A DNA stretch of 64,000 bases, from positions 18,503 to 82,502 of IMG/VR virus record IMGVR_UViG_3300012929_000018. One strand, 5' to 3'. Of the stretch, positions 13,342-56,220 are shown one piece after another. The stretch comes from a virus. The translations under genes and the position numbers were made by a program. The notes beneath the pieces are model-generated. The model saw nothing but the letters and a program-made list of their open reading frames with translations. It was not told the origin of the DNA and ran no database searches. The first letter of the stretch is position 1. The number at the start of each line of letters is the position of its first letter.

Positions 13342-14765
13342 GCATTCTAGGAGACGACGATTCTCAAGATCAATTCGCGGCTGAGGGCGGATTTGCCCCC
13401 ATGACCGACAACCCAAAAGAGGCCAAAGCATCCAAGTCCGCCCAGAAGGAAGCGATGAAAGCGGAGCAGGACCAGCAAGCGCGCGAGGCTTTGCAAACGG
13501 CGCTTCGCGACCTACATATGCATTTCGACGGCGAGAAGTATTGGTCGAAGCTGGAAGATGGGCGATGGGTCTCCGACACGGCGGCGAATGCGGCCGCGAA
13601 TGTGCGGCAGGACTTCAACCTCTACAAACCGGACTACGTCGAGCAGGTGCTTCACCGGGTCCGTAAGAACAGCCGCATCGACGGCGTCTTCCCCTATATC
13701 CATAACAAGCAGGAGATTATGCGGGAAGAAGGCGGCACCTTCCTCAACATTTCCCGGCGGCAGGTCATTGCTCCCGCACTCGAGCCCGGCGAGTTCACGT
13801 GGCTGCAAACCTATTTCGACAACATCTTCGATCCAGCCCAGCCGATCCAACGCGATCTGTTTCTGGCCTGGTTCCAGCGGCTGTATAAGTCGTCCCTCGA
13901 AGGCAACCTGTTGGCTGGCCAAGCCGTGATTATCGCGGGGCCGACCGGCACAGGCAAGACGCTGATGAACTACAAGATCATCGGCGCGGCGCTGGGCGGC
14001 CATACAGATGCGGCCGAGTATCTGCTGGGCAAGACTGCGTTCAATAAGGAAGCGGCCGAGACCGCGGTGTGGTGCGTCGACGACAACCGCGGCGGCGCCA
14101 CATGGGAGAAGCACGACGAGTTCGCGAACGCCCTCAAACGTTACGTGGCCAACCCCAAGATTCCCTATCACCCGAAGTTCTGCGATGCCACAACCGTCAC
14201 ATGGCGGGGCCGAATCGTCGTCACCTGCAACTTGGACGAGAAGTCGCTTTCTATTCTGCCGGAACTGGACGACTCGATCGTCGACAAACTGCTGTGGTTC
14301 AAGACTTCATCATTCCGACCGGACTTCAAAGACGTGGAAGCCGTAATTGAACGTGAGCTTCCTTTCTTCCTGCGCTGGTTGATCGACTGGGCACCACCCG
14401 CCGACGTGATCAAAGGCGATGAGCGGTTCCGGATCCTGCCCTACCAGCACCCCGACTTGGTTGCCGCGGCCCGAACGGCCAGCGCCGACTATCAACTTTC
14501 TGAGATGCTCCGGATCGCGATCCACAAGTCGATCATCAACGACAAGAAAGAAGTCGAACGTTGGATGACGGCGTCGGAGATTCGCGAGTGCCTCGATATT
14601 GAGGGGCTGCGTGGGTCGCTCGCCAAATTTGCCAACAATCGGCTGGGTATCGCCCTGTCCAAATTGTCGGAAACCGAAGATACCAAGCACCTTGTCCGCG
14701 GCGTCCGCCGGATCAAAGGGTTCAAGCAGTACCTTCTGACCCTCGACAAGACCGCGTGGCTGTAG
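13338..14765 (+). CDS. SF3/D5-like helicase (DUF5906-like)
   Basis: Walker A GPTGTGKT, Walker B WCVDD, sensor IVVTCN. Confidence 0.8.
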   Translation: MSILGDDDSQDQFAAEGGFAPMTDNPKEAKASKSAQKEAMKAEQDQQAREALQTALRDLHMHFDGEKYWSKLEDGRWVSDTAANAAANVRQDFNLYKPDYVEQVLHRVRKNSRIDGVFPYIHNKQEIMREEGGTFLNISRRQVIAPALEPGEFTWLQTYFDNIFDPAQPIQRDLFLAWFQRLYKSSLEGNLLAGQAVIIAGPTGTGKTLMNYKIIGAALGGHTDAAEYLLGKTAFNKEAAETAVWCVDDNRGGATWEKHDEFANALKRYVANPKIPYHPKFCDATTVTWRGRIVVTCNLDEKSLSILPELDDSIVDKLLWFKTSSFRPDFKDVEAVIERELPFFLRWLIDWAPPADVIKGDERFRILPYQHPDLVAAARTASADYQLSEMLRIAIHKSIINDKKEVERWMTASEIRECLDIEGLRGSLAKFANNRLGIALSKLSETEDTKHLVRGVRRIKGFKQYLLTLDKTAWL

Positions 14766-15125
14766 CCACCACCGAAAAGGGTAGTGGCTACCTTAACCAC
14801 CACCAAGCCCACTTTCGTCGCAAGTGCTTTTAACGAATGGCCTTACGTGTATTTTGGGCACAAAACAGTGGTGGTAGCCAAATTCAAACCCTTCCGGCCG
14901 GAAGCTTGATTTTGAGCATAATATGATTATTTTTTTTTTCCAATGGAAGAAATAAGAAATGCCACTACCCACTACCTAAATCGAGAAGCCCTGCAACCCT
15001 GCTACATTCTACGCAATACCTATGATAAACGTTACCAAATTACAGGGCTGCAGGGCTTTAGGGAAGTAGGTGCCTAAGCAGGCAGTTACTCAGGGTGTCA
15101 AAATGGCACACTTCTTATATTTGCT
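14762..15125. other. Putative replication origin
   Basis: Non-coding region after primase-helicase with repeated CCAC(C/T)ACC / GGT(A/G)GTGG units in both orientations, a T10 tract in an AT-rich core, and inverted CAGGGYTG doublets. Confidence 0.5.
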
Positions 15126-15266
15126 GTTCGCGAATATCGAATATGAGAGGATTTGTAAAGGTTTCCGACGCTTTTCTTGAAACACTGTGGAGTTGGTGTC
15201 CGAATGCGCCAGTTTCTTCCGAATCGCGCCATTAATCCCGCCATTGTGTCGCGATTGGATGACGAG

Positions 15267-15339
15267 AGCCGGAGACAGGCTTCGAACCCGTGACCGTCGG
15301 TTTACAAAACCGCTGCTCTGCCGACTGAGCTACACCGGC
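15267..15339 (-). tRNA. tRNA-Thr(UGU), no encoded CCA, atypical
   Basis: GCCGGTG TA GCTC..GAGC A GCGGT TTTGTAA ACCGA CGGTC ACGGG TTCGAAG CCTGT CTCCGGC T. T:T mismatch in the acceptor stem, G:A in the anticodon stem. Confidence 0.8.
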
Positions 15340-15543
15340 TCTCGTCGCCCTTAGCCGCCCTTCGCGTCTTTGCTCGGGAGGATATATTTGATCACAGCCG
15401 CAATCGCTTGCCCCGCCTTGTGGAGAGGATTTGCTTACGCCGGAACCGCCGCGACCATACTCGCAGCCACTAAACCGATCGTGATAAGTTTCTTCATGAG
15501 CAGCAGCCTACTCCCCGCCCGGCGCCGCGCAACTACTAATTTC

Positions 15544-15571
15544 TTGAAAAATAGTAATTGGGGCGTATGCT
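15544..15571 (+). promoter_or_regulatory. Sigma70-like promoter
   Basis: TTGAAA-16 nt-TATGCT, ending 8 nt before ATG 15580. Confidence 0.45.
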
Positions 15572-15579
15572 CCCGGCCT

Positions 15580-15735
15580 ATGGCAGCTATTGTAACCCGC
15601 CCTGTGTGGCAACTGCTTCTGGCGATCTACCTGATCCTCGTTTGCGTCAACGCCTTCGTCGGCCTTGGGTCCGCGGCAATTATTGTCCCGATCCTCGCCG
15701 GTCTCGCTGGCCTCCTGATGCTTGTTGGAAAGTAA
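15580..15735 (+). CDS. Small two-TM membrane protein
   Basis: MAAIVTRPVWQLLLAIYLIL...LAGLAGLLMLVGK, entirely hydrophobic. Confidence 0.65.
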   Translation: MAAIVTRPVWQLLLAIYLILVCVNAFVGLGSAAIIVPILAGLAGLLMLVGK

Positions 15736-15738
15736 CCC

Positions 15739-16182
15739 GTGAAGCTCAAACTTATTTCTGAGGCCGGGCTCGGCTTAGCCCTGCTCTGCGCCCTCGTTGT
15801 AGTCCCGATTCTTCAACCGAAGCCCTATCGCCCGACTGGGCCGGACCCTGATGCCGACTCGCCTATTGTCATTTTACAGAGAATTGACGCAGACTCCGTG
15901 CAATGTAAGGCCAAGCCGACCTGTGTTTGGAAACGACACGGCGATGGGCACACTGCAACCTTTCATCTCGAACTTACTACCGTATGCCCGGCCGCTGGCG
16001 CCGACAAAACTTACGTTTCTCGCGAGGCTACCGTTGATGCGGCCAAGGACCAATCCGGTGAGGTTGGCGCGGCCCTTCTCGTGATGATGGCGAATGAAAT
16101 CGTCGCGGCGGCTGGGAAAGACGGATTCGAGATGACTCCTAAAGCCTTGCTGCAGAGTTGCAACATGGAAGAAGTGAAGTAA
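15739..16182 (+). CDS. Membrane-anchored hypothetical protein
   Basis: N-terminal TM followed by a Cys-containing soluble domain. Confidence 0.55.
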   Translation: MKLKLISEAGLGLALLCALVVVPILQPKPYRPTGPDPDADSPIVILQRIDADSVQCKAKPTCVWKRHGDGHTATFHLELTTVCPAAGADKTYVSREATVDAAKDQSGEVGAALLVMMANEIVAAAGKDGFEMTPKALLQSCNMEEVK

Positions 16183-16339
16183 TATCCCTCATGCCTGCTG
16201 AGAGCCAAGCCCAACGTGGATACCTGAATGCAAGATTCGGTCACGCATGGGTTAAGAAACATCATTTCGATAACAAGGGTGCTCTCCCCGCTCACGTCAA
16301 GCCAAAGCCGCGTAATCAACACGGCATCGGCCATTGACT

Positions 16340-16412
16340 AGGGCAGTAGCTTAGCGGCTAGAGCATCTGGTTTGGGGCCAGGGTGGCGTGAGTTCGAATC
16401 TCACTTGCCCTA
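16340..16412 (+). tRNA. tRNA-Pro(UGG), no encoded CCA
   Basis: AGGGCAG TA GCTT..GAGC A TCTGG TTTGGGG CCAGG GTGGC GTGAG TTCGAAT CTCAC TTGCCCT A. Confidence 0.85.
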
Positions 16413-16421
16413 GTCAGCGGC

Positions 16422-17273
16422 CTAATAATCCATCCCGCACACGAACGCGCGAGCAATTATCTTGAGAATCTTGCGCCGGTTCCTGCGGTGCTTCCGGCTT
16501 TCCTCGCCGAGCAGCCTCATCATCGCGGGCATCCTTGTGGCCCTGTGATACTTCATCGCCAATCGGTCGTTTGCGTTTGCCCAGCCTTGTCCCGCCCACT
16601 TCATTTCGCGGTAGCTGGCGCCGAGGCGCGGGTGCCACAGGTGAAGGATTTGGTTGCGAGTCGATTTGTGCTTGGCGTAAAGGGTGTCCAGAGACCGGAG
16701 CAGAGCCACATCCTCGCCGCCCCAGCCAACGAAGCGTTCGTCGAACCCGCCGAGAATGTTGTAAGCCTCGCGGGGAAACATCATAATCATCGCGCCATAC
16801 CGGTGCCCGTAACTGGCTTTGGTCGTGCTCTCAACATCGCATGCGTCCGGCGGTGTCGGAAACTTGTATGGGAACTTCGGCGCAGAGCCTAGCACTTTCA
16901 AAGTAGCGGCCTCAGTCAGCCGATACAGCTTTCGGTAAGGAACGAACCACAGTCGGTTGCCTTCTTTCTGCTCCTCGATGATGCGGTCGGCGCACCTATC
17001 AATCACGTCAGCGTCGATATAAGCGTCAGCGTCCAAGATCACGAGGACTTTACCGTTGGCCCGGCGAGCGGCTCGGTTCATCGCGCGCGTCTTGCAGAAA
17101 GGATTCCCTGCAGCCCTGCCGATGATAATCTCGCAGTCAGGCAGCGCGTTGCGCATATACTTAATCACCCAGCGTAAGATTTTGCGCCGATACTTGTCAC
17201 GCCCATGGAAGGGAATGAGCAAGCTGATCTTCGGCCGCCGGAGCTTGTGCTTATCTAAAATAGTTTTCCACAT
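16422..17273 (-). CDS. Glycosyltransferase (GT2/GT7-like)
   Basis: ISLLIPF, FCKTRAMNRAA, VILDAD (DxD), GGFDERFVGWGGED, HLWH. Confidence 0.9.
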   Translation of the reverse strand: MWKTILDKHKLRRPKISLLIPFHGRDKYRRKILRWVIKYMRNALPDCEIIIGRAAGNPFCKTRAMNRAARRANGKVLVILDADAYIDADVIDRCADRIIEEQKEGNRLWFVPYRKLYRLTEAATLKVLGSAPKFPYKFPTPPDACDVESTTKASYGHRYGAMIMMFPREAYNILGGFDERFVGWGGEDVALLRSLDTLYAKHKSTRNQILHLWHPRLGASYREMKWAGQGWANANDRLAMKYHRATRMPAMMRLLGEESRKHRRNRRKILKIIARAFVCGMDY

Positions 17274-17988
17274 CTTCAAATACCTCGAACAGTTGGTGCT
17301 GTAGATCGCTGATCTTGTGCGGGTCGGCAGTCATCAAGACACCAGGTTGAAATTTCATCCCTACACTAGCATGATAATCCCTCCACTTAAAGTCTCCACC
17401 TTCTTGATGGGCGTGGGTGATCATTCGCGGCGCCAACTCGATCCGGCGAGGGATAATGAAAGCGTCGGCAACGATCGCTCCGTGAAGGGAAGAGGTTACG
17501 ATCTTTTTGCACCGGCTGATTTCGCGAAGCACTTCCATCGGGTCTTGGGAAACGTCGATGATCCTCGGGTTGAATTTGGTGAACCGCGGGTCAAGAGCCA
17601 ACGTCTTGTCGGTCCAGTGGGGCACGATGCCAAGGTCGTATTCCTTATCGCGGTAGCCTACCAGTTCGTCTGCGAGTAAGCCGGGGTCGGCCATAACCAC
17701 ATCCCTCTTCAAACCTTTGGCGGTAAGGGGCCCGCGCACGGCAAGAAAAGTAGCGTGAGGTAGGTCAATCACGGTGCTTTCGTGGAGCTTACCTACCCCG
17801 GCAACTACTCCGGTCCAGTTCTTAGGTAGATGCCCTAGAATGGATCCGATCACAACTAGCTCAGCTTCTTCTGGCTTCGCCCAAACAGACTCGAGATTTG
17901 CGAATCTTCGGAGCAACATGGTCGCCAGCCGGTCGCCGAAGTTTGGTTTGTCTTTCCAAAAATATGCTTTTACGGCGGCGTGGATCAC
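17251..17988 (-). CDS. Polysaccharide pyruvyl transferase family protein (ExoV-like)
   Basis: PNFGDRL, VIGSIL, AVRGPLT, ADPGLL, GIVPH, TSSLHGAIVADAF. GTG start at 17988 is inferred. Confidence 0.88.
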   Translation of the reverse strand: MIHAAVKAYFWKDKPNFGDRLATMLLRRFANLESVWAKPEEAELVVIGSILGHLPKNWTGVVAGVGKLHESTVIDLPHATFLAVRGPLTAKGLKRDVVMADPGLLADELVGYRDKEYDLGIVPHWTDKTLALDPRFTKFNPRIIDVSQDPMEVLREISRCKKIVTSSLHGAIVADAFIIPRRIELAPRMITHAHQEGGDFKWRDYHASVGMKFQPGVLMTADPHKISDLQHQLFEVFEDVENYFR

Positions 17989-18039
17989 AACATTTAGTGT
18001 ATCACGGCTTCGTCCGCTTGCTGTGAAAAAGAAAAATTC

Positions 18040-18068
18040 TTGAAAAGTTTTTTGCCGGGGAGTAGATT
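18040..18068 (+). promoter_or_regulatory. Sigma70-like promoter
   Basis: TTGAAA-17 nt-TAGATT upstream of the GGAGGT RBS of ORF 18136. Confidence 0.5.
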
Positions 18069-18135
18069 TTCTCAGCCCGAAGTGGATTAAAGGCTGAACA
18101 GGTCCCAGCAGAATTGGACCCAACGGAGGTAATGA

Positions 18136-18672
18136 ATGAAGAAAGTAATAATCGGAACTCTGTGCAGCGTGGCCCTAGCACTAGGCGCCTATGCGCAGAC
18201 GAATGAGGTAAGCATCAAGCAAAGTGAACGCGGCCCAGCGATGGGTCAACATGAGCGGGTGCAAACCAAAACGGAAATGCGCGGGTCTCCCCGGCAAATC
18301 CATCGCATGCAGCGAGACCAAATCCGAGAAACCGCAGGTGAGAACCGGCGTATCGAGGAGCATGGAAACGCTGTAATTGAGCGCGGCCATCCACGGACTG
18401 AGGTGCGCTCGGAGCAGCGCGTTGAAACCCGCGGTGATCGGTTCTTCTTCTTCGGTGGGCGAGAGCTTCACCGTCGAGGCGACTTCGACCGTAACGACGT
18501 GCACTTCCGCATCGGATTCCACCCTCGATTCTGGTGGACCCAGCACTACACCAACATCGTATTGATCAACGGGTGTTGGTATTACGAGGACGGCGGGTTC
18601 TTCTATCCGGCATACGGATACGACCCTGATTGCAGTTACCCTGACCAAGTGATCTTCTCATTTGGCGACTAA
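18136..18672 (+). CDS. Secreted protein with aromatic-rich C-terminal domain (host-like)
   Basis: Signal peptide MKKVIIGTLCSVALALGAYA; WWTQHY..IVLINGCWYY..GFFYPAYGYDP; strong RBS. Confidence 0.75.
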   Translation: MKKVIIGTLCSVALALGAYAQTNEVSIKQSERGPAMGQHERVQTKTEMRGSPRQIHRMQRDQIRETAGENRRIEEHGNAVIERGHPRTEVRSEQRVETRGDRFFFFGGRELHRRGDFDRNDVHFRIGFHPRFWWTQHYTNIVLINGCWYYEDGGFFYPAYGYDPDCSYPDQVIFSFGD

Positions 18673-18688
18673 GGGCGGCGGTTAGATA

Positions 18689-18727
18689 AGACGCGTAGTT
18701 GGCAGAATCTGTCAGCTACGCGTTTTT
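18689..18727 (+). terminator. Rho-independent terminator
   Basis: ACGCGTAGTTGGCAG-AAT-CTGTCAGCTACGCGT followed by a T tract. Confidence 0.85.
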
Positions 18728-18767
18728 ACTTCTAGCATAATTTGGCTAATTTGTGTATAATTCGCGC

Positions 18768-18845
18768 ACCGGGATAGAGCAGCCTGGCCAGCTCGTCACG
18801 CTCATAACGTGAAGGTCGTGGGTTCAAATCCCACTCCCGGAACCA
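18768..18845 (+). tRNA. tRNA-Met(CAU), initiator-like, with CCA
   Basis: A1:A72 mismatch, GAGC/GCTC D stem, CTCATAA loop, TTCAAAT T loop, ACCA end. TGTGTATAAT extended -10 just upstream. Confidence 0.9.
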
Positions 18846-18850
18846 ATTGT

Positions 18851-19111
18851 ATGCGCTTTATACTACTGTTCTTATTGCTGGTCTCACGCTTGACTTACGC
18901 CGGTGATACCTACGACTGCATCAACTCGAAGGGTGACTACATCAATTACGGACCGCCCGCACCGCCGCGGAACACCTCAATCGTTGGCGCGATCGATTCC
19001 CGCCGATACGACCGGTGGCTCCCGATGTTGAGCCAAGAAGATGAACGCCGCCTGCTGTTTATACAGGCTGCTCGACTGCGCGAATACGCCATTCTTTATG
19101 CCAACCCCTGA
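18851..19111 (+). CDS. Small secreted hypothetical protein
   Basis: Signal-peptide-like MRFILLFLLLVSRLTYA. Confidence 0.5.
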   Translation: MRFILLFLLLVSRLTYAGDTYDCINSKGDYINYGPPAPPRNTSIVGAIDSRRYDRWLPMLSQEDERRLLFIQAARLREYAILYANP

Positions 19112-19340
19112 ACAACGCGATGAAGGCCGCCCCTGTGATTGGGAGCCAGAAGAACACGACCCGATTATGGTGGCCGCAATCAAGCGGCTTACTGATGAAG
19201 TTCAGCGATTGAAGCGTGAGGAACGCGAGAAGGCCATCAATGCCGTCTCGGAACAATGCACCTGCACCGCCCTTTTCACGAACGCCTTATGCCCAATTCA
19301 CGGCCCAGCGTTCACTCGCCACCTCGAAAATAGAAAGTAA
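19098..19340 (+). CDS. Hypothetical protein (CTC...CPIHG Zn-finger-like)
   Basis: Packed ORF with a Cys/His motif. Confidence 0.55.
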   Translation: MPTPEQRDEGRPCDWEPEEHDPIMVAAIKRLTDEVQRLKREEREKAINAVSEQCTCTALFTNALCPIHGPAFTRHLENRK

Positions 19341-19342
19341 CT

Positions 19343-19603
19343 ATGCCCTCCCTCGTATCCGTATCCGAAGCAACCCGAGCCATTCAAAGCCCGTTGTTGC
19401 GCGCCATTGAAACCGTCGTCTCCGAAGAGATTGAAAAAGTCATCGAAGACGCGAAACGCAAAGTCGAGCAGAGAGTTCGCGGTGAAGTCGGTGCCATAGC
19501 CGCCCGTGTCCTTGAGAAGTTCAGCTTCGAGAGGCTGGGGCAGGAGTTAGTGATTCGTGTTGAATTCCCTGGCGCTAAGAGTAAGCTGCCGGGTGATCTG
19601 TAA
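19343..19603 (+). CDS. Hypothetical protein
   Basis: AGAAAG upstream; helical 86-aa ORF. Confidence 0.6.
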   Translation: MPSLVSVSEATRAIQSPLLRAIETVVSEEIEKVIEDAKRKVEQRVRGEVGAIAARVLEKFSFERLGQELVIRVEFPGAKSKLPGDL

Positions 19604-19886
19604 ACCCGTAACCCCGATCCTCGAATGCCCGGTTTGTCCGGCGACGTGGGATCTGGGAAAGGTAGGAGTTCGCGGGCTCGATTATCAAGTGCCGATGCAT
19701 GTCCGAGTTCAATTTCGGGCACCGGCGATTCTCTGCGCGGGCTCGCACAAGAAGCTTCCGCTAACCTTTTACGACGCCGCGCCGTTGTCTCATGGCGAGC
19801 CACTGGCCTAACCGCCGGTGCGTGAACTGAGACAAGTTGGCTCCCTACGTTGGAGAGCGACTTTCTGTCTCACTGGCGATTAAGGT

Positions 19887-19958
19887 GTGACCGTAGCTCA
19901 ATTGGCAGAGCCCTCGGTTGTGGACCTTGAGGTGCGAGTTCGATCCTCGTCGGTCACC
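19887..19958 (+). tRNA. tRNA-His(GUG), degenerate (possible pseudo-tRNA)
   Basis: GTGACCG/CGGTCAC acceptor, C73, TTGTGGA loop. Anticodon stem CTCGG/CCTTG has two mismatches; T instead of G at -1; followed by CCT rather than CCA. Confidence 0.7.
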
Positions 19959-19970
19959 CCTTAGTCGCTC

Positions 19971-20001
19971 ACCTTCGGGTTTTTATAGGAAAAAATTTTT
20001 T
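19971..20001. repeat. T-tract/A-tract motif, copy 1 of 3 (others 32862-32890, 36794-36825)
   Basis: ACCTTCGGGTTTTTATAGGAAAAAATTTTTT vs ACCTCGGTTTTTTGAGGGAAAAAATTTTT vs ACCTCGGGTTTTTTGGGAGCAAAAAATTTCT. Confidence 0.7.
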
Positions 20002-20102
20002 AACCTCCCCTCATCACCTACACACCTGCACGTGCGGGGGCCCGCGGGGGTAGGGGTGGGTCTGCTTCTGGGAGCAGGCATAAGCGCGCTCGCGTGATGC
20101 CT

Positions 20103-20115
20103 GCGCATAATGCGC
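20103..20115 (+). promoter_or_regulatory. GCGCATAATGCGC palindromic promoter/operator motif, copy 1 of 7
   Basis: Other copies at 20688, 20886, 22711, 32005, 33559, 36860. All are intergenic or at gene ends and lie upstream of a purine-rich RBS. Confidence 0.8.
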
Positions 20116-20128
20116 GGGAGATGGTCGA

Positions 20129-20671
20129 ATGAAAATCACACGAACAAGTCCATCGCTCAAACAATCGAACATCAATCACGTGTGCGAGAGCGCACGTATG
20201 CACGGTCGAACACGCTCGCCTCATTGGAGTTGGAACGCCGAAGCAGAAGTCAATTCCCTACGGGAAAACCGGCACGATTTCAGAATGCCGAAGGCATTAG
20301 ACCGGAAAGCCCAAGGCAAATGGGTGAACGAATACACGCCTAAGGTGCAGCCCTGCGACGGTGTAACCGTGACGCCTGTAAAGGGAAACAGGGTTGCATG
20401 GCTGAGTGAGGAACAAACTAAACGTTTCAAAATCACAATCACGAATGACGCAGGCGTTGAAGAACAGGCACGCATGAGCATGAAATTCACCACCTTAGCA
20501 ATTCTTACTTACGGAAAAGTAGTAGAATTTGTTCGCTGCCACCGCGGCGTAAACGTGCGTGACATGCGCACAGACACGCTCAGATCACCCGCGTATGTCA
20601 CCGCTGAAATTCGCCGCTTAATTCCGGTTAATGCGGAACAAGCGATTGAGCAGCTATTCGCGACTGAATAG
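20129..20671 (+). CDS. Hypothetical early protein
   Basis: Directly follows motif copy 1 and GGGAG; start may lie downstream. Confidence 0.55.
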   Translation: MKITRTSPSLKQSNINHVCESARMHGRTRSPHWSWNAEAEVNSLRENRHDFRMPKALDRKAQGKWVNEYTPKVQPCDGVTVTPVKGNRVAWLSEEQTKRFKITITNDAGVEEQARMSMKFTTLAILTYGKVVEFVRCHRGVNVRDMRTDTLRSPAYVTAEIRRLIPVNAEQAIEQLFATE

Positions 20672-20687
20672 CACGCACATCACGCTT

Positions 20688-20700
20688 GCGCATAATGCGT
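20688..20700 (+). promoter_or_regulatory. GCGCATAATGCG(T) motif copy 2
   Basis: One mismatch; followed by GAAGAAAG and ATG 20716. Confidence 0.75.
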
Positions 20701-20715
20701 GTGAAGAAAGTAACC

Positions 20716-20850
20716 ATGAAAAACAAATTATCTGAAATCCTGTTCGATCTGAGTGAGCGCCTGCCTAAATGCCTGAACGCATTAGCGTGGACGCTCGACC
20801 GTGTGAGCCGCGCTATGGTAGCGAATAGCGTTGACTCAATCGGACTTTGA
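20716..20850 (+). CDS. Small hypothetical protein (44 aa, MKNKLSEILFDLSERLPKC...)
   Basis: Manual translation; motif plus RBS upstream. Confidence 0.55.
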   Translation: MKNKLSEILFDLSERLPKCLNALAWTLDRVSRAMVANSVDSIGL

Positions 20851-20885
20851 CTGTCACACGCCTTCGAGCGCAGCGCGCTATGTGT

Positions 20886-20898
20886 GCGCATAATGCGC
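20886..20898 (+). promoter_or_regulatory. GCGCATAATGCGC motif copy 3
   Basis: Exact copy, immediately before structured RNA A. Confidence 0.8.
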
Positions 20899-21386
20899 TC
20901 GAAGGAAGTGACCGCCAGTCGGTTGCTCGGAAATGAGCGAAGCAGAGTAGCGAGTGAATGAAAGCGGGTAGTCGCATGAGTCGCCACAGCGTCAATCTCA
21001 TGTGTAAGCTGCGAATAGCTCGTGAGGGTAGCTACAAGCGTGTTCTAGTCCGGAAAATTAACCATCCGGTTTCGTAAGGGTGTTCAATGATGCTACACCC
21101 ACGGTGAGGCCCGAACAAACGGGTGCGTAGAAGCGAGTTGGCTCTCGTGGAACGCATCACGCAAAAGCCTGATCGTCGGATATTAAAAACCAAATTCAAC
21201 ACGCATACGAGTGACGCGACGTTATTCGTAGATGGCTGCGCGACGCAGCTATCAGCGTGCAGCCCTGTGGCCCTGCTACAATGTTCCAGAATACGCGTGA
21301 TGCGTAGGACGGCAGCATTTCAGGGACACTAGCCAGTGCATCTCACACGTGACGTGTGACGTGTTACAGGGTTGCAATCTGATACC
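20899..21386 (+). ncRNA. Large structured ncRNA candidate A (~490 nt)
   Basis: No credible ORF. More than 10 helices, including the 11-bp ACGCATCACGC/GCGTGATGCGT enclosing a three-way junction with two 10-bp hairpins. Confidence 0.7.
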
Positions 21387-21815
21387 ATGAGTGATTTAAC
21401 CATTCAAGCGAACGGTCAGGCTCTAACGCTCGGAAACTTCGGCGGGGTCACTAAACCCGACTTCCGAACGAAAAACGCGAAGGAGTATCTGTCCGCGCAT
21501 TTCGGTGTCACTGTAGTCAAAGGCATGAAAATGCCTGACGTGAAAGCGGCTGTCCTCGCGACGGGCGTTACGGAAGCGAATTTCAAACTCGCCCGTAAAA
21601 CCTACGACGGGAACAAGCAACAGTATCACGTCGAGTGCCGCAAAGTGACGGCGCTTCTCGCGGCTGACCCGAATTATCGGCAGTCCATTCGCAAGATGAA
21701 AACGGGTGCGGTTGTGACGTTCCGTAAAATCGGGGCCGTTGCTGCCAAGCAATCTGCCGCCGCCCGTATCGCGCAGTTGGAAGCGAAGCTCGCAGCGGCG
21801 GGCATCGCGGCCTAA
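21387..21815 (+). CDS. Basic Lys/Ala-rich protein (142 aa) between two structured RNAs
   Basis: Clean ORF, many K/R residues, C-terminal coiled-coil-like AAARIAQLEAKLAAA. Confidence 0.8.
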   Translation: MSDLTIQANGQALTLGNFGGVTKPDFRTKNAKEYLSAHFGVTVVKGMKMPDVKAAVLATGVTEANFKLARKTYDGNKQQYHVECRKVTALLAADPNYRQSIRKMKTGAVVTFRKIGAVAAKQSAAARIAQLEAKLAAAGIAA

Positions 21816-22326
21816 TCGCGTCGGCGCGACTTCGGAGTGTGAATGTCTGTGGGTGCGCAAGCGCCCACAGCAATTCGCTCTCACCTAAGGTGAACAGCTA
21901 GGCATACGCTATGAAAACAGTGCGGCTTTAGGGAACGATAGCGAAGAAAAGTGGCGAAGCGTAAATCGGGTTGGCCCGTAAAGCCTAACGATCAGGCGCG
22001 CGCAAGTCGCACCCCGCGACTAGGCCCCAAACGGCGAAAGCACGTTGCAACGTGCCCGCTGCGTTGGTCAGCGGCGGGTGTGCGGCGCATGTTGAGTGCT
22101 CAGTCAGGCTGGGTGGAAGTAGGCGCGTGAACATGACGCGCGCTGAGAAGCGGCGGGCCAAAAGCTCGCAAAATAGGCCCATGCTGCCGCGCGGTGGCAT
22201 GTGACGCACCCGGCCTGACTGCGCACAAGCGTAGTAGATGTGATTTCGGTTACAGCTAGTTCTTTGAATTACAACTAAGATTACGTTCTCACTGGCACGC
22301 TGGCTCTGCCTAAACCAGCACAATTT
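21816..22326 (+). ncRNA. Large structured ncRNA candidate B (~510 nt)
   Basis: More than 12 helices, including the 15-bp CAGTCAGGCTGGGTG/CACCCGGCCTGACTG closing a multibranch loop of four hairpins. GNRA loops (GCAA, GAGA). Confidence 0.75.
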
Positions 22327-22521
22327 ATGAACCATGCAATGACACCACGCGAAAACTATCGCCCTTATACGCCTGCGGAAATCCAGGCTATTCGTGCGGC
22401 CGGGCGCATCACGCGCGCCGCGCGATGGGACTGCGCCAACCTCGAACAAAGGATGGAAATGCACCCTGAATTGAACCCGAACAAGCGGTGGTTTGAGCAG
22501 AAGGCGTGGAAACTACTATGA
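22327..22521 (+). CDS. Hypothetical protein
   Basis: Packed small ORF. Confidence 0.55.
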   Translation: MNHAMTPRENYRPYTPAEIQAIRAAGRITRAARWDCANLEQRMEMHPELNPNKRWFEQKAWKLL

Positions 22522-22718
22522 CCATCGAAGTAAAACGAGACGGAAAGACGGTCTGCACGATCATCAAAGGCTCGGGCAGAATTAGCAGCGACAAGCTGAA
22601 ATTGCTCGCGATCAGATATAACGCGGGCCATTTAAGCACTTTCAACGATATGCGCGAGGTAGTTCGACAGGCGAAAGTCATTCGCTTGGAGAAAGCTCTC
22701 GCGGTAATGTGCGCATAA
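22518..22718 (+). CDS. Hypothetical protein
   Basis: Overlaps the previous stop; ends within motif copy 4. Confidence 0.55.
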   Translation: MTIEVKRDGKTVCTIIKGSGRISSDKLKLLAIRYNAGHLSTFNDMREVVRQAKVIRLEKALAVMCA

Positions 22719-22723
22719 TGCGC
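22711..22723 (+). promoter_or_regulatory. GCGCATAATGCGC motif copy 4
   Basis: Exact copy upstream of GAAAGGA RBS and ATG 22756. Confidence 0.8.
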
Positions 22724-22755
22724 GCGAAGCAGATAACCAACAACGAAAGGAAACC

Positions 22756-22947
22756 ATGAAACACACCATCACACTGACAAAGGACAAAGAGACGAAGAAC
22801 AAAATTCGTTTCTCGAACGAACCCACCGACGCGATTAGCGGAAGCTTATACATCGCGAAGGAACTCGTCGGCAACGTGAATGCGATTCAGTTCGCAATCG
22901 AGTTGCCCGAGGTTGCGGTGACTGCTCCGACTCCGGTCGAAGCGTAG
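22756..22947 (+). CDS. Hypothetical protein (KETKNKIRF...GSLYIAK)
   Basis: Strong RBS. Confidence 0.7.
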   Translation: MKHTITLTKDKETKNKIRFSNEPTDAISGSLYIAKELVGNVNAIQFAIELPEVAVTAPTPVEA

Positions 22948-22997
22948 TTGATACGCAGCGCCCCGTGTGATAACGTGGGCGTTGCAATCAGTTACGT

Positions 22998-23073
22998 TGT
23001 AAGGTAGCTCAGTTGGTAGAGCAGGCGCCTGTTAAGCGCCGCGTCGTAGGTTCGACTCCTACCCTTACAGCCA
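22998..23073 (+). tRNA. tRNA-Asn(GUU) with CCA
   Basis: Canonical cloverleaf: TGTAAGG/CCTTACA, GGCGC CTGTTAA GCGCC, GTAGG TTCGACT CCTAC, G73 CCA. Confidence 0.95.
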
Positions 23074-23077
23074 ACAC

Positions 23078-23148
23078 ACAGGGGGCGAAGGCAGTAGCGC
23101 GAACTCCAAATCCGCGTGTGATGAGTTCGATTCTCATACCCTGTGCCA
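23078..23148 (+). tRNA. tRNA-Trp(CCA) with truncated D-arm
   Basis: ACAGGG/CCCTGT acceptor, CTCCAAA loop, ATGAG TTCGATT CTCAT, G73 CCA. Only 14 nt between acceptor and anticodon stems. Confidence 0.7.
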
Positions 23149-23176
23149 CTTTTTGACTAGGTTGGTTGCGCAACAA

Positions 23177-23268
23177 TGACCTGCACCTTGCATCGCGGTA
23201 GCCGTTGCAGCGGTGGAACGAAGTAAGAGCGTTGTTGTCGATGGTCCGATTCCATCGCTGGTCACCCA
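23177..23268 (+). ncRNA. tRNA-like RNA with 8-bp acceptor, T-arm and CCA end
   Basis: TGACCTGC/GCTGGTCA, GATGG-TCCGATT-CCATC, C-CCA end. Oversized first arm and no canonical anticodon loop. Confidence 0.55.
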
Positions 23269-23272
23269 CTTT

Positions 23273-24432
23273 ATGAACGAGACAGACGAACGCCTGCAAA
23301 GGCAATGGGCGCAGATTGAGAGCAATCGACGCGCCGACAAGATCGTGCGCCGTCGTAAGATCGCGCAAGTCACGGGCGGCTGTGACCGCTGCCCGCCTCA
23401 CGCGAAGGAGAACGCGCGCCTCAAAGGGCGTAAGCCGCGCGAGGATAAGCACAAGAATCACCGCACGGTTAAGTGGAGTAGCCACCATTCCGTGCCTATT
23501 TACTAATTTATGAACAGAGGAAACAGACAGGCGGACATACAGTTCCGCGATATGCTGTGGCGTTACGACCCACGGTCAATCGAAAGCGATACACCCACGG
23601 CCGAGTGGACGTGTGCGCCCGAACCTAAGTGCGTTGTCGCACGTAGTTTGGGTGAAAGTAGAGTTGTGAACGCACGGGGCGTTCGCAGAGCAGCATGAGT
23701 TGGGAAACAATCGGGTGGCTATTGACGATACCGGGATGGTGCGTTATAGGCATCACAGCAATCATCAAACTATGCAAACCACAATAGAAACGCTCCCTAA
23801 GCGCCGCGGCGTTGTCGCGCGAGCTAACGGGATTACGGATAGCTACGGCAAGCAATATATTCGCATGAGCGATGGTAGCTTGCGCAAATTAAACGCAGTT
23901 ACTGAGCCGCAACAGCCGCTCGTTCTCGGTGGGTTCGAGGTATGAGTGAGATTCACACAGATGAGTGGAAGCATCGCCGTGACACGTTGGTCGGATTCGT
24001 GATTATGTGCAATAACAACAATTGCTCTAATCGCCCATTCGATGACGCGCGCAGCGTGCGACCTGTGATCACCTGTGAAAACGTGCTCGAAGCAATGCGC
24101 GAGCGCATGCCGGACATTACGGCAGCGCAGCGTGTGGATTTCGTGCATGTCGCGAAGGGATTCATACCAATCAAGTAGGAGACAAAACTATGGCAAATCG
24201 ACAGACAAGGTGGTTGCTCGCCCACGGGCGCGGCACCAAAAACGTGGTGGGCAGCAGCCCAGCGCGTGCAGAGCATATTGACCGCCCGCTATTTCATGGC
24301 GTGACGTGCAATACTGCGAACAAGAAAACCAAGCCGCGTGACTCACTCGGCAAGTTGCGGACGTTGAGCAGCAAGCGAGTGCTCGACAAGCGCATCACGG
24401 CTTACGCGGTCAATCCAATTTACGCATCATGA
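23273..24432 (+). other. Cluster of five small hypothetical ORFs (23273-23506, 23510-23698, 23772-23945, 23942-24178, 24190-24432)
   Basis: Tightly packed co-oriented ORFs; several are Arg/Lys-rich. Confidence 0.55.
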
Positions 24433-24459
24433 AGCCGCCGTTCTGGATTTTCTACCAAG

Positions 24460-25038
24460 TTATGATGGTAGTGATACTGGCGCTGTCGGCGCTGGTAGCT
24501 GTGCCGTTGTGGGCGGCGTTTGAGTTTGCGATGCTTCCTTGGCATCTTCACCGGATGCATCGGAGACAATCTCGCCCTCGATCACGACGGGAGTAGGTTC
24601 ATCGTCGGCGCTCATCGCCTCATTGATGTTGATGAGTGTCTGTGATACCACATCCTGAGTGTCGAGACCTGCGGCGCGCCGAGCAATTTTGTCAGCGAGT
24701 TCAGCTTCGCGGAAATTGCTCGGCGCCTTGGCCTTCATCAATTTCAGCGAATCATGGGCTAAGTTGAAAGCTACCTTGCGGTGGTTTTCACCTTTCTCCA
24801 ACCATTCATCGGCTTTCTTGGCAATGGCATTCTCAGCGGCCTTTTCAGCGGCTCGCGTTTGGATAGCCCCGATCATGCGTGATACGAGCGTCAATCGCTT
24901 GCGGTTCACCCGCCTGCGAATGGTGTTCGCCGATACGCCAAATCGGGCCGAAAGCTCCTGAATGTTAAGGCATTCGGCGGTGGCTGCATCTTGAATGGCG
25001 ACCCAAGGGATACCTTTGGTGGGCGGTCTCTTCTCCAT
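24460..25038 (-). CDS. HTH protein, probable terminase small subunit
   Basis: N-terminal HTH (IQELSARFGVSANTIRRR), helical oligomerisation-like middle (DKIARRAAGLD), acidic tail with VIEGEIV typical of TerS. Confidence 0.6.
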   Translation of the reverse strand: MEKRPPTKGIPWVAIQDAATAECLNIQELSARFGVSANTIRRRVNRKRLTLVSRMIGAIQTRAAEKAAENAIAKKADEWLEKGENHRKVAFNLAHDSLKLMKAKAPSNFREAELADKIARRAAGLDTQDVVSQTLININEAMSADDEPTPVVIEGEIVSDASGEDAKEASQTQTPPTTAQLPAPTAPVSLPS

Positions 25039-25066
25039 GTGTGACCGCAACCTTACGACAAACTTT

Positions 25067-25545
25067 ATGGATAAGCAAGACGAAACGGTAGATCGTTGCA
25101 CCCGCATACGCGCGCCATGGACAAAGTGGCGTTTGTGTGTCGGCGTGGAGACGAAATACATGCCGATCGTTATGGCCGGGCTCTCTAACGAGGGCGCGCT
25201 CAAGGTCGGCATGATTACAGCTTGCCAGAGCAAGCTTGAGGGCGGGATTATTGTTCTACGCCCTTTACACGGAGCAAATTGATGGACATAAATCAAACGC
25301 ACGACGCCATCCAGAAGGCGATGAGCGACGCTAGGGAAACTCCCGAATACAAGCAAGAAGGCGAGGAACTGAAAAAGTTTAACCCGCGGAAGCGCGGTGG
25401 CGCTGCGTATCCTAAACGCAGCGGCATGTCACGGCGCAAGCTACGAGCAAAACAACTCGCGCCGCCGATCACACAGGAGCGCACGAATGCGTTGCTCGAC
25501 GCTGCGCTGAAAGTTTGGAGTTTGAAGCATGGATACACAGACTAA
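25067..25545 (+). other. Two small hypothetical ORFs (25067-25282, 25282-25545)
   Basis: Coupled TGATG junction. Confidence 0.5.
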
Positions 25546-26278
25546 CGACAGACCCAAGATGCGGATAGACTTCCCATCGCAATACGCGTGGGAACAATAC
25601 CTTCGCGACCAGCCTGTGCCAGCATTACTCGGCTATCGTTCGATGCTAGAAGTGGCACTCGACGCGCCAACCCCGCCCACGCAGCTACGCCTGGATATGC
25701 GCACGCGCACAGGTAATGTGCCGCATCATGCCAGTGCTGATGTGGTGAAGTCGGATTACTTGTCGAATGTTATGTCACCCATCGGGTTACAGAAGGTCGT
25801 GCGTAAGGTGTGCTCGGTCATTAAGAAAAGCGGCGTCGAGTTCGATTCGATTGCATTCCGTGGATTCAGTGGAGCGTTGGTTGCGCCGCTGGTCGCCTGT
25901 CGATTGAAGAAAGGATTCCTCGCGGTGCGCAAGCACAAGGATAACGAGGATTGTCATTCGAGCTATCCTGTCGAGGGCGCAGTCAAAGCGCATTGCCATT
26001 ACATAATCATTGACGACATTATCAGCAGCGGCGCAACCGTCTGGAACATCGTTACCGAACTCAACACTTTCAAATATATTGATGTTTCCACTAACGGGAA
26101 CACCGACTACCAGATCTTCAAACGCAAGTGCGTGGGTGTGTTCCTTTACAACTCATGGGTGAGCGATAAGGGTAAGGGACACGGCTTCGACTTCGAGACG
26201 CGCGAGATTCATGCTGCCTACGGTGCTGACACCGAGGATTCATTTCATCTGCCTGTTTGGTCGTTCTCGGCAAAATAG
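25529..26278 (+). CDS. Type I phosphoribosyltransferase-domain protein
   Basis: PRPP-binding motif YIIIDDIISSGATV; upstream FDSIAFRGFSGALVA and AVRK. Confidence 0.85.
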   Translation: MDTQTNDRPKMRIDFPSQYAWEQYLRDQPVPALLGYRSMLEVALDAPTPPTQLRLDMRTRTGNVPHHASADVVKSDYLSNVMSPIGLQKVVRKVCSVIKKSGVEFDSIAFRGFSGALVAPLVACRLKKGFLAVRKHKDNEDCHSSYPVEGAVKAHCHYIIIDDIISSGATVWNIVTELNTFKYIDVSTNGNTDYQIFKRKCVGVFLYNSWVSDKGKGHGFDFETREIHAAYGADTEDSFHLPVWSFSAK

Positions 26279-43734: not shown

Positions 43735-44070
43735 TTAAAACATTAAAAGCAATCCAAACATCGGTTTGGGTTCTAGGTATTTTCATCCTCGTCGCCATCA
43801 CAGGAGTTGCGATTCAAGTCGACAACATCGAACGAAACCTGACCCGAACCGACAAGGCACTTACCGCAATCGAAAAGAAATTAGGTATTGAGCTATGAGC
43901 GAAGGAAAGCCGCAGGCCCATGTGGTTCTTGGTCGGGGTGGATATAACCAATCCATTCTGCCTGCGGCGTTCCTTCGCTCACGCCCCAATGGGCCACCTC
44001 AATCTCCTGTGCCGGGCCTTAGCCGCCATGAATGTCGGGATGGTTGTTGCGTCATCTACTTTCGATAATT

Positions 44071-55292: not shown

Positions 55293-55293
55293 G

Positions 55294-56220
55294 TTAAGGG
55301 ACAAAGGATGCGGCGGGCTTCAATGCAGGTGCGGCGGAAACTGCAGGTGTTCCGCCTTTGCCGGGAACTGTGCCGCGCGCGATATTAACTCGGGCGGTTC
55401 GTAAAGCTTGTTTCATCAAAGCAACATCAGGATCGTTAGGATCCAAATCGGGGTCGGCGAGTGCGGCTTTCATTTCCGCGGCGGTCTTGTGAGCAGCAGT
55501 CATCTCAGCGGTCTCGGCCTTGTTGCCATAACCGGCGGCTTTCTTGGCCGCGGACTGTTGCGTAACGTAATCCAGATTGTAAACGACATTACCAGTTCGA
55601 GGGTTTCGTTGAAGATATTTGGGCATGGCGCTTTTACCGTCCCATACAGGAAAGTCCTCGTTGGTTAGAGAACCGTCGGCGATACCGGCAGCGATAACCT
55701 TCGACGCTTTTTCTTGATAGGCTTCTTCCTGCTTCGCATTCGCCTCGGTGAGCGCCAAGTGTTTTGCATTCGCGTTGAGCTTCATGTTCAGCGAATGAAT
55801 CACACTCGGGTCGGAGGCGGCGCCTGGATTCTTGGCGAGGATCGCGGCGGCCTTGTCTTGCATCTGAGGATCGTCGATTGCCACGTGCGCGAAATCGGTA
55901 TGGAAAGCACCCGCGTCCGCCGCAACGTTGGCTTGGTGGAGCGCGTCGTGAAAGTATTTGGCGGTCTCCGCATAGTTCTTGGCGTCGTTGAGCGCCGTGT
56001 TGTGGGCGTGCATGGCATTGCGATAATCCTGCACTTGACCGCGATCCGTGAATCCACCGTCAGGGCGCGTCGGCATCTCAGGGATTGGGCCGGGAGCGTT
56101 CGCCGTGACGTTTTCGTAATTGGCGGTAGCGGCCGCAATCGCCGCTCGCGGGTCACCGGGAGCATATTGCTGCACATCCTGAAACTTGTTGGGGTCGTTA
56201 CCTGTGAAATCGGTTGGCAT
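55294..56220 (-). CDS. Putative ejection/internal virion protein
   Basis: Ala-rich helical ORF directly upstream of the giant protein. Confidence 0.6.
   Translation of the reverse strand: MPTDFTGNDPNKFQDVQQYAPGDPRAAIAAATANYENVTANAPGPIPEMPTRPDGGFTDRGQVQDYRNAMHAHNTALNDAKNYAETAKYFHDALHQANVAADAGAFHTDFAHVAIDDPQMQDKAAAILAKNPGAASDPSVIHSLNMKLNANAKHLALTEANAKQEEAYQEKASKVIAAGIADGSLTNEDFPVWDGKSAMPKYLQRNPRTGNVVYNLDYVTQQSAAKKAAGYGNKAETAEMTAAHKTAAEMKAALADPDLDPNDPDVALMKQALRTARVNIARGTVPGKGGTPAVSAAPALKPAASFVP

Follow-up and report, generated by a model that had tools for sequence, protein, structure and literature searches.

The early messages of phage T7 are cut apart at RNase III signals, irregular hairpins and helices of about two turns that lie between co-oriented genes, and these hairpins stay behind as protective 3′ ends. 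Large ornate RNAs such as ROOL and GOLLD are often found near phage transfer RNA (tRNA) islands, and GOLLD joins a conserved to a less conserved part (PMC12286853, as excerpted). In T4-type phages, small ORFans and short non-coding PeSL cassettes are reshuffled between close relatives, as the excerpt of PMC2839356 describes. The locus considered here, RNA B, belongs to an 82.5-kb IMG/VR virus record (IMGVR_UViG_3300012929_000018) that CheckV rates as complete; a stretch of 64,000 nucleotides (nt), bases 18503–82502 of the record, was analysed and is called the window below, and coordinates refer to it unless a contig is named. RNA B is the exact 511-nt gap between a gene for a protein of 147 amino acids (aa; 21372–21815) and a gene for a 64-aa protein (22327–22521). 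Phage genomes are compact, and a gene-free half kilobase calls for explanation. A preliminary description, made from the letters alone, had presented the gap as one structured RNA in which a long helix closes a five-way junction. Our comparison indicates that RNA B is not one conserved large RNA: some of its parts are kept by selection on pairing, namely a bipartite hairpin, an irregular hairpin with a fixed palindromic loop and a two-turn helix, and the rest is swappable filler. Judged from sequence, these parts form a new, unclassified set of structured RNA modules, most likely of a known kind by analogy, the processing and stability signals between phage cistrons, in an arrangement that is unusual and exchangeable.

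Like phage RNase III signals, RNA B holds irregular hairpins and a helix of about two turns between co-oriented genes, and its bipartite hairpin, with an internal loop, comes right after a stop codon. Against the 20–22 bp or so of double helix expected of such signals, the long helix of RNA B has 19 of 20 positions paired in the window and 21 of 22 in its relative L002. The idealised Escherichia coli substrate is given as 22 bp, or two A-helical turns, in the excerpt of PMC3867540; this is the measure for lengths of 20 and 22 positions, and the enzyme of the actual host may differ. RNA B also shares with ROOL and GOLLD a length of several hundred nt, a non-coding character, a phage genome and adjoining tRNA genes. 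It has a conserved and a less conserved part, as the excerpt of PMC12286853 reports for GOLLD, and, in principle, two molecules could touch through its conserved self-complementary loop. Unlike them, it matches no Rfam model at E ≤ 10 and has no architecture conserved across relatives. A conserved complex structure of the ROOL/GOLLD type was rejected: the gaps compared (511, 589 and 277 nt) hold different modules, and much of the sequence folds at chance level. The setting recalls the PeSL cassettes in the reshuffling of small ORFans and short non-coding pieces between close relatives and in a repeated promoter-like palindrome, present in seven copies, one of them inside a perfect 12-bp hairpin. 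RNA B differs in that its modules are single-copy and that two of them show RNA-type covariation. An assignment to the PeSL type was rejected, as the gap has neither a sigma-70-like promoter nor a U-tract terminator and the 5′ hairpin motif is unique.

On the + strand the gap as a whole folds better than expected (z −3.80, with 0 of 100 dinucleotide shuffles as good), and the − strand gives z −1.94. The 300-nt segment 22001–22300 ranks 2nd of 638 on the + strand by GC-adjusted minimum free energy (MFE). When each part was scored separately against 300 dinucleotide shuffles, the excess was found in three of them, a 5′ module (21835–21882), an irregular hairpin termed C2 (22003–22095) and a long-helix domain termed V2 (22096–22226). 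Every complementary segment listed in the preliminary description was located in the sequence, no more than a few bases from the place given for it, and the single-sequence MFE fold includes most of these segments, among them the TCACC/GGTGA helix (21881–21885/21889–21893, + strand). GGCTTTA/TAAAGCC, AGTCGC/GCGACT and CCCGCTGC/GCGGCGGG are present, yet neither the MFE fold nor an alignment fold of two sequences uses them; both folds draw C2 as a single, long and irregular hairpin, a choice that two sequences leave provisional. That the helices exceed chance was borne out for the 5′ module, C2 and 22096–22226, but not for a segment near the 5′ end termed V1, the interior of V2 or 22227–22326.

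Relatives were obtained by scanning JGI metagenome contigs with the alignment of the 147-aa protein, which yielded L002 (147-aa protein 91% identical, gap of 589 nt), L003 (72% identical, gap of 277 nt) and L004, which is near-identical to the window and stops at 22185. One run, X1, may be of the sample from which the record came. A second metagenome (X2), searched as Logan contigs at 80% likeness, contributed single contigs of depth 4–7; these are weak hints, and the parts they leave uncovered are not evidence. To keep the relatives from influencing the structures used in the pairing tests, these were predicted from the sequence of the window by itself. Double-changed pairs and permutation tests on these sequences indicate that parts of the gap are under selection for pairing on the + strand, in agreement with the earlier view of a structured non-coding stretch.

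The 5′ bipartite hairpin module (21835–21882, + strand) starts 20 nt past the stop codon of the 147-aa gene and folds with z −6.65, a value reached by 0 of 300 shuffles. An internal loop and a bulge break up its 19 pairs, which consist of GAG/CUC (21835–21837/21880–21882), a lower stem (21839–21844/21873–21878) and, beyond a 2×2 internal loop, a 10-bp upper stem (21847–21856/21861–21870) with the loop GCAA. The hairpin directly follows the 147-aa gene in the window, L002, L003 and L004, and does so in two X2 contigs as well. Between the window and L002 the 48 nt are 98% identical. Compared with L003, 15 pairs are unchanged, five are double-changed (four in the upper stem, one in the GAG/CUC stem) and none is broken; permuting the substitutions gave equally few breaks in 0 of 5000 trials, and 98.5% of cells are paired as opposed to 30–54% when the partners are slid. 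No sequence differs in the lower stem, in the 2×2 internal loop or in the first three upper-stem pairs, two U-G pairs are conserved, and the GCAA terminal loop of the window corresponds to UACG in L003. The motif occurs once in the window and is followed on its 3′ side by CAAUUCGC. A pattern built on the hairpin flanks matched 0 stretches in viral contigs; its sole match in genome contigs (L005) lies within a 610-aa open reading frame (ORF) of a GC-rich Phycisphaerales contig and was dismissed as chance.

C2 (22003–22095, + strand) is a 93-nt irregular hairpin with z −2.49 (4 of 300 shuffles), and its counterpart in L002 has z −2.30. Its helices (22006–22026/22066–22086, 22032–22036/22057–22061 and 22040–22045/22050–22055) are capped by the palindromic GUUGCAAC. 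Across helices 2–5, 30 of the 32 pairs are kept in L002, with five pairs double-changed and five single-changed. Three of the double changes fall within the six-pair stem below GUUGCAAC, which is itself unchanged, and the UGCA loop inside it is kept despite them. Permuted substitutions produced as few broken pairs in 0 of 5000 trials, and pairing stands at 93% against 30–46% with the partners slid. Conserved U-G pairs occur here too. Five extra pairs that join the ends of the excised fragment are regarded as a cutting artefact, since four of the five are broken in L002. A covariance model of C2 found no further copy in the window and none in L003, and GUUGCAAC is not enriched (three copies in the window, 1.5 expected).

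The third part, V2 (22096–22226, + strand), has z −5.35, again with 0 of 300 shuffles as good. Its arms, 22096–22115 and 22207–22226, span 20 positions, of which 19 are paired, and flank a 91-nt interior: 4 bp (22096–22099/22223–22226) are separated by a T-C mismatch from 15 bp (22101–22115/22207–22221) that include one U-G. The arms are 90% complementary, and the helix is the fourth longest among 65 inverted repeats in the window. Inverted repeats in which 18 or more of 20 positions form Watson-Crick pairs and the arms are 3–150 nt apart occur at two places, as against a mean of 0.015 per shuffled window; any such 20-nt repeat was present in 3 of 200 shuffled windows. The other place, 43887–43990, is the longest inverted repeat of the window, with 31-nt arms that are 84% complementary and 42 nt apart.

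The 15+4-bp helix of the preliminary description was thus recovered beyond chance, and it recurs in L002, where 4842–4863 pairs with 4913–4934 at 21 of 22 positions. The basal 11 positions are as in the window, including the T-C mismatch at position 5, with one C-G pair changed to U-G. The next 11 pairs and the 49-nt interior of L002 are unrelated to the 9 pairs and 91-nt interior of the window. Since the distal pairs and the interior differ while pairing stays, pairing over about two turns is maintained at this site, and what changes is the outer sequence and the content. U-G pairs are found in both versions. The helix was not found in L003; within the window the arms have no other copy (three further one-mismatch matches are isolated), and the phage record holds one copy. 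V2 is like bacterial elements of the ERIC and Correia type in being a unit of about 130 nt bounded by 20-nt inverted repeats, in lying in a presumably transcribed intergenic setting and in the long RNA helix it would form. It differs in its one copy per 82.5-kb phage and in a complementarity that continues into unrelated sequence in L002. A miniature inverted-repeat element was rejected on the same ground: terminal repeats are present, but the element is single-copy in the phage record.

The remainder of the architecture first proposed fared less well. The four hairpins of the five-way junction (V2 interior, 22116–22206) do appear in the MFE fold, at 22123–22128/22136–22141, 22142–22144/22149–22151, 22153–22158/22164–22169 and 22180–22188/22193–22201. 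They are at chance level, however (z −1.00, 46 of 300 shuffles as good), and in L002 the unrelated 49-nt interior (z −1.47) takes their place; L004 carries them as far as its contig reaches. Of the two self-complementary loops that the preliminary description thought might allow kissing-loop multimerisation, UGCA is the loop kept in C2, and GCGC falls in this unconserved interior. V1 (21883–22002), which holds TCACC/GGTGA and GGCTTTA/TAAAGCC, has z +0.53, with 206 of 300 shuffles as good, and is replaced in L002 by an unrelated segment of 164 nt (z −0.67). In one X2 contig, 94 other letters replace 21885–21947, with flanks that differ at 0 and 1 positions. The long-range closure TACGCT/AGCGTA is absent from the MFE fold and has its 5′ arm in the segment replaced in L002. 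Helices that would close the whole gap by pairing 21920–21953 with 22290–22321 were discarded as well, being unsupported by the relatives and dependent on V1.

The 3′ module (22227–22326, + strand) is the 5′ untranslated region of the 64-aa gene. It has z −1.15 (41 of 300 shuffles as good), and its single-sequence MFE fold is unsupported by the relatives (P 0.37 and 0.04); a 10-bp helix of that fold, 22237–22246/22278–22287, was dropped for this reason. Its elements are a hairpin, 22239–22244/22249–22254, with a UUCG loop, an AGUU/AACU stem and a conserved hairpin, GCUGG/CCAGC (22299–22303/22315–22319), that ends 7 nt 5′ of the AUG. The last 112 nt of the gap are 90% identical between the window and L002 and are partly retained in L003. 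Hairpin 22239–22254 shows one double change (A-U to G-C) and two G-U to G-C changes, and its loop reads UUCG, UCCG or UCAG across the sequences. The start of the 64-aa gene has no Shine-Dalgarno-like run, which, taken with the conserved hairpin so close to the AUG, suggests that translation start is controlled here. A 15-letter pattern of the module matched at least 120 stretches and was too loose to be of use, and a blastn comparison of the three gaps with 121 loci (L005–L125) gave a lone 22-nt match, in L107 at E 0.01, taken as chance.

The window and L002 have in common the 5′ module, C2, the base of the long helix and the last 112 nt; the rest is unrelated. At least three replacement or insertion events in 511 nt separate them, at V1, at an additional module X and at the distal helix and interior of V2. 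Module X (L002 4765–4824) follows C2 and precedes the long helix; the window has no counterpart. This module is a 60-nt hairpin that recurs, with 88% identity and one stem pair double-changed, at L003 1388–1447, a different position in the gap. The gap of L003 consists of the 5′ module, X, about 70 nt more and a 3′ module of reduced length. It has neither C2 nor the long helix, which are limited to the lineage of the window and L002. Relatives' gaps of 589 and 277 nt are thus built from different pieces, which is at odds with a single coherent 511-nt RNA. An X2 contig covering 21759–21875 (depth 6.6) diverges from the window after 21875 and reaches an ATG eight letters on; by its sequence, the long gap may be missing in that phage. 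RNA A (20851–21371), the non-coding stretch on the upstream side of the 147-aa gene, is by far the more conserved of the two RNAs. It is colinear with L002 and about 93% identical throughout, has z −1.82 and contains several double-changed stems, for example CATGAG/CTCATG versus CATACG/CGTATG.

The 147-aa protein and its alignment found no related loci in viral contigs or genome contigs, the alignment of the 64-aa protein found none in viral contigs, tblastn of the 147-aa protein against GenBank phages returned no match, and blastn of 21700–22450 against the same phages returned 0 matches. An Rfam scan, proposed at the outset as a check, yielded five tRNAs and nothing else in the window at the gathering threshold, and at E ≤ 10 over 14000–26000 it left the gap without a match. 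Over 20850–22400 at E ≤ 10, two sub-threshold matches, to Clostridiales-1 (19.6 bits against a cut-off of 48) and sR9, lie outside the gap or on the wrong strand, and the gaps of L002 and L003 had no Rfam matches. A retron non-coding RNA was rejected, with no RVT_1 match in the 82.5-kb record, as was an omega RNA of TnpB or IscB, with no PF07282 match in the record and adjoining genes that encode 147 and 64 aa.

All of 12 modules fold more stably on the + than on the − strand, by 0.2–12.8 kcal/mol. The U-G pairs would be A-C mismatches on the opposite strand, so that RNA of the + strand is favoured. Loops of the supported hairpins are of the GNRA or UNCG types (GCAA, UACG, UUCG, UCCG), and the + strand holds every gene flanking RNA B and four of the five tRNAs of the tRNA island. 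We regard this as moderate evidence, drawn from predicted folds, for a sense-strand RNA. Neither a sigma-70-like promoter nor a hairpin followed by a T run was found on the + strand of 20000–23600, which makes read-through from the gap into the 64-aa gene plausible. An intrinsic terminator, which would need a GC-rich hairpin with a U tract behind it, was rejected: this part of the + strand holds no such site, and the 5′ hairpin is followed by CAAUUCGC.

The promoter-like palindrome, GCGCATAATGCGC, has + strand copies with at most one mismatch at 20103, 20688, 20886, 22711, 32005, 33559 and 36860; six of the seven are exact, and that at 20688 has one mismatch. With up to two mismatches there are 17 matches on both strands, against 5.6 expected, and six of the seven copies have a purine-rich run and an ATG within about 15–35 nt downstream. 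The copy at 20886–20898 (+ strand), upstream of RNA A, and the copy at 22711–22723 bracket the presumed transcription unit. The former falls within the 3′ arm of a hairpin with 12 perfect base pairs (20861–20872/20894–20905) and precedes RNA A, not a gene.

The reading that we favour, with a probability of roughly 45%, is that RNA B is the intercistronic part of a + strand early transcript and carries separable, cis-acting hairpin modules that would serve RNase III-type processing, messenger stability and translation start. The transcript would run through the tRNA-rich region of small genes from GCGCATAATGCGC at 20886 to GCGCATAATGCGC at 22711, and its modules (the bipartite hairpin, C2, the helix around a variable insert and the leader of the 64-aa gene) would be gained, lost and swapped among relatives. 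The two-turn helix and the bipartite hairpin would act as double-strand-specific sites of the RNase III type, at which the polycistronic RNA is cut between cistrons. Such a cut would leave a protective hairpin on the 3′ end of the upstream message; in the downstream message, the leader hairpins would govern both stability and the start of translation. Filler, or cassettes open to exchange, would make up V1 and the V2 interior. Since the phage encodes no RNase III domain, the enzyme would have to come from the host. That the unit is transcribed as a whole, that it is cleaved and that any of the functions named here follow is inferred from sequence. If RNA B does carry processing and stability signals, they would provide testable handles on gene expression in an uncultured phage group, and would be non-coding hairpin modules exchanged in the manner of genes.

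Several observations weigh against this reading. The fixed lower stem of the 5′ hairpin and the fixed GUUGCAAC loop point to sequence-specific recognition by a protein or RNA, for which RNase III would have no need. RNase III sites of phages are not known to take, as a rule, the form of a helix around several hairpins, and the long helix of RNA B closes a multi-hairpin insert of 49–91 nt, not a simple loop; a 511-nt gap far exceeds what a processing site needs, and unlike the known signals the modules are present or absent among close relatives. If C2 and the long helix have a processing role, their absence from L003 would make that role dispensable. The z-scores do not separate the strands in L002 (+ −5.68, − −6.64) or L003 (+ −2.60, − −3.15), and the energy difference of + over − for 22001–22300 ranks only 28th of 638. 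Palindrome-templated mutation at the level of DNA could mimic part of the ‘compensatory’ pattern of the long helix, and the whole comparison rests on two to three independent sequences.

The gap may instead be hyperplastic, largely functionless spacer in a region of rapid change, made of scars of repeated recombination, lost genes and inserted palindromic DNA. Roles would then remain for just two parts, the 5′ hairpin and the 64-aa gene's leader, and palindrome dynamics in DNA, not selection on RNA, would keep the long helix perfect. This is a doubtful explanation. The mosaic, with its three or more events in 511 nt between phages whose 147-aa proteins are 91% identical, would be expected of such spacer, as would the third variant of V1 in the X2 run and the chance-level folding of V1 and the V2 interior, and promoter-like palindromes repeated beside small ORFs recall both the PeSL cassettes and the hyperplastic regions of T4-type phages (PMC2839356, as excerpted). 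Templated repair of palindromes would not be expected, however, to produce the compensatory and wobble-compatible (U-G) changes of C2, and repair to a perfect palindrome would erase both the T-C mismatch shared by the two versions of the long helix and the U-G pairs that they carry. All modules favour the + strand, and the arms of the long helix, single-copy in the phage, leave no room there for a multi-copy mobile element. A DNA-level element, with single-strand hairpins or palindromic protein sites that act in replication, recombination or an unusual promoter, is very unlikely. It would sit well with the minimum of cumulative GC skew at about 16–19 kb of the window, a few kb upstream, and with GUUGCAAC and the fixed flanks of the 5′ hairpin as protein sites, and hairpins in DNA tolerate G-T pairs. 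But the sequence is GC-rich (0.60 in 22001–22300) and shows no iterons or AT-rich stretch, stems that covary below fixed loops imply folded single strands and not duplex operator sites, GNRA and UNCG tetraloops are of RNA type, and the gap is placed between co-oriented genes with no terminator.

Alternatively, the conserved parts may leave the message as RNAs in their own right. C2 and the long-helix domain would then be excised, with the long helix as a processing stalk, to give non-coding RNAs of a new class, one or several, that stand alone and act in trans; they might act alone or with the basic 147-aa protein, possibly as dimers through the palindromic loop, and would be analogues of the large ornate RNAs that phages carry next to tRNA islands. 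We hold this to be unlikely. The site does lie in a phage tRNA island, near which ROOL and GOLLD are often found too (excerpt of PMC12286853). C2 covaries around a fixed GUUGCAAC loop, the long helix encloses compact RNA as a stalk would, just as tRNA-Pro lies inside a 17-nt inverted repeat, the adjacent RNA A is about 93% identical to L002 with compensatory changes, and in every relative compared the 5′ hairpin comes together with the 147-aa protein. Set against this, Rfam gives no match at E ≤ 10, the content of the gap varies among relatives with 72–91% identical 147-aa proteins to the point that L003 is without C2 and the long helix, and one X2 contig passes from the 5′ hairpin directly to another ATG. 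The V2 interior folds no better than chance and is unconserved, the 147-aa protein has no recognisable RNA-binding fold, and GUUGCAAC is unenriched (3 versus 1.5 expected). More ambitious, and quite improbable, is the idea that C2, the long-helix domain, RNA A and the 147-aa protein make up a new phage ribonucleoprotein or RNA-only system of the tRNA island, in which stalks would release compact RNAs, GUUGCAAC would dimerise and the inserts would be specificity cassettes. Were RNAs indeed released, they would add a candidate to the few large phage RNAs known beside tRNA genes. An overlooked protein-coding gene on either strand is scarcely credible. ORFs of 59 and 50 aa (+) and of 159 aa (−) do overlap the gap; family matches are absent, and none is retained in L002, where the 59-aa frame meets a stop and the 159-aa frame is split into pieces of 72 and 52 aa. 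All three + frames are interrupted by stops in both the window and L002, the indels between the two are not multiples of three in length, and the 159-aa ORF, the first part of which overlaps the conserved 64-aa gene on the + strand, has no Pfam or PHROG match. On these grounds of sequence the gap is non-coding and the 159-aa ORF is not a gene; the preliminary description had named a real, conserved gene in this frame as what would undo the idea of a structured RNA.

The gene upstream of RNA B (21372–21815, + strand) encodes a basic protein with nine homologues of 54–92% identity in a collection of 5.8 billion proteins (alignment A1) and with no Pfam or PHROG family. Its AlphaFold2 model has a mean predicted local distance difference test (pLDDT) score of 68.1 and no fold match in PDB or BFVD at E ≤ 0.001, and an ESM Atlas search with the protein gave no usable match. 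The downstream product (22327–22521, + strand) is 92% identical in L002 and 70% in L003. RNA B and its neighbours belong to a region in which small + strand ORFs accompany five tRNA genes (15266–23073). Within it, tRNA-Pro (16339–16413) is enclosed by a 17-nt inverted repeat that is 88% complementary (16329–16422). This repeat is the acceptor stem lengthened by pairing of leader with trailer, another long helix around a folded RNA in this phage.

The genome is that of a tailed phage and encodes a helicase/exonuclease, a family A DNA polymerase, a ligase and rIIA. The DNA polymerase shares 27% identity with that of the best GenBank phage; on sequence comparison this is an uncultured soil phage of a lineage that has no close cultured relative. 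A 2658-aa ORF at 47328–55304 (− strand) and the adjoining ORFs of 657 and 318 aa match no Pfam family at E ≤ 0.001. The most stable of the 638 300-nt segments after GC correction is 24501–24800 (+ strand, z −3.05), which includes a perfect 14-nt inverted repeat (24676–24689/24713–24726) and lies opposite a minus-strand ORF of 298 aa that is helix-turn-helix-like.

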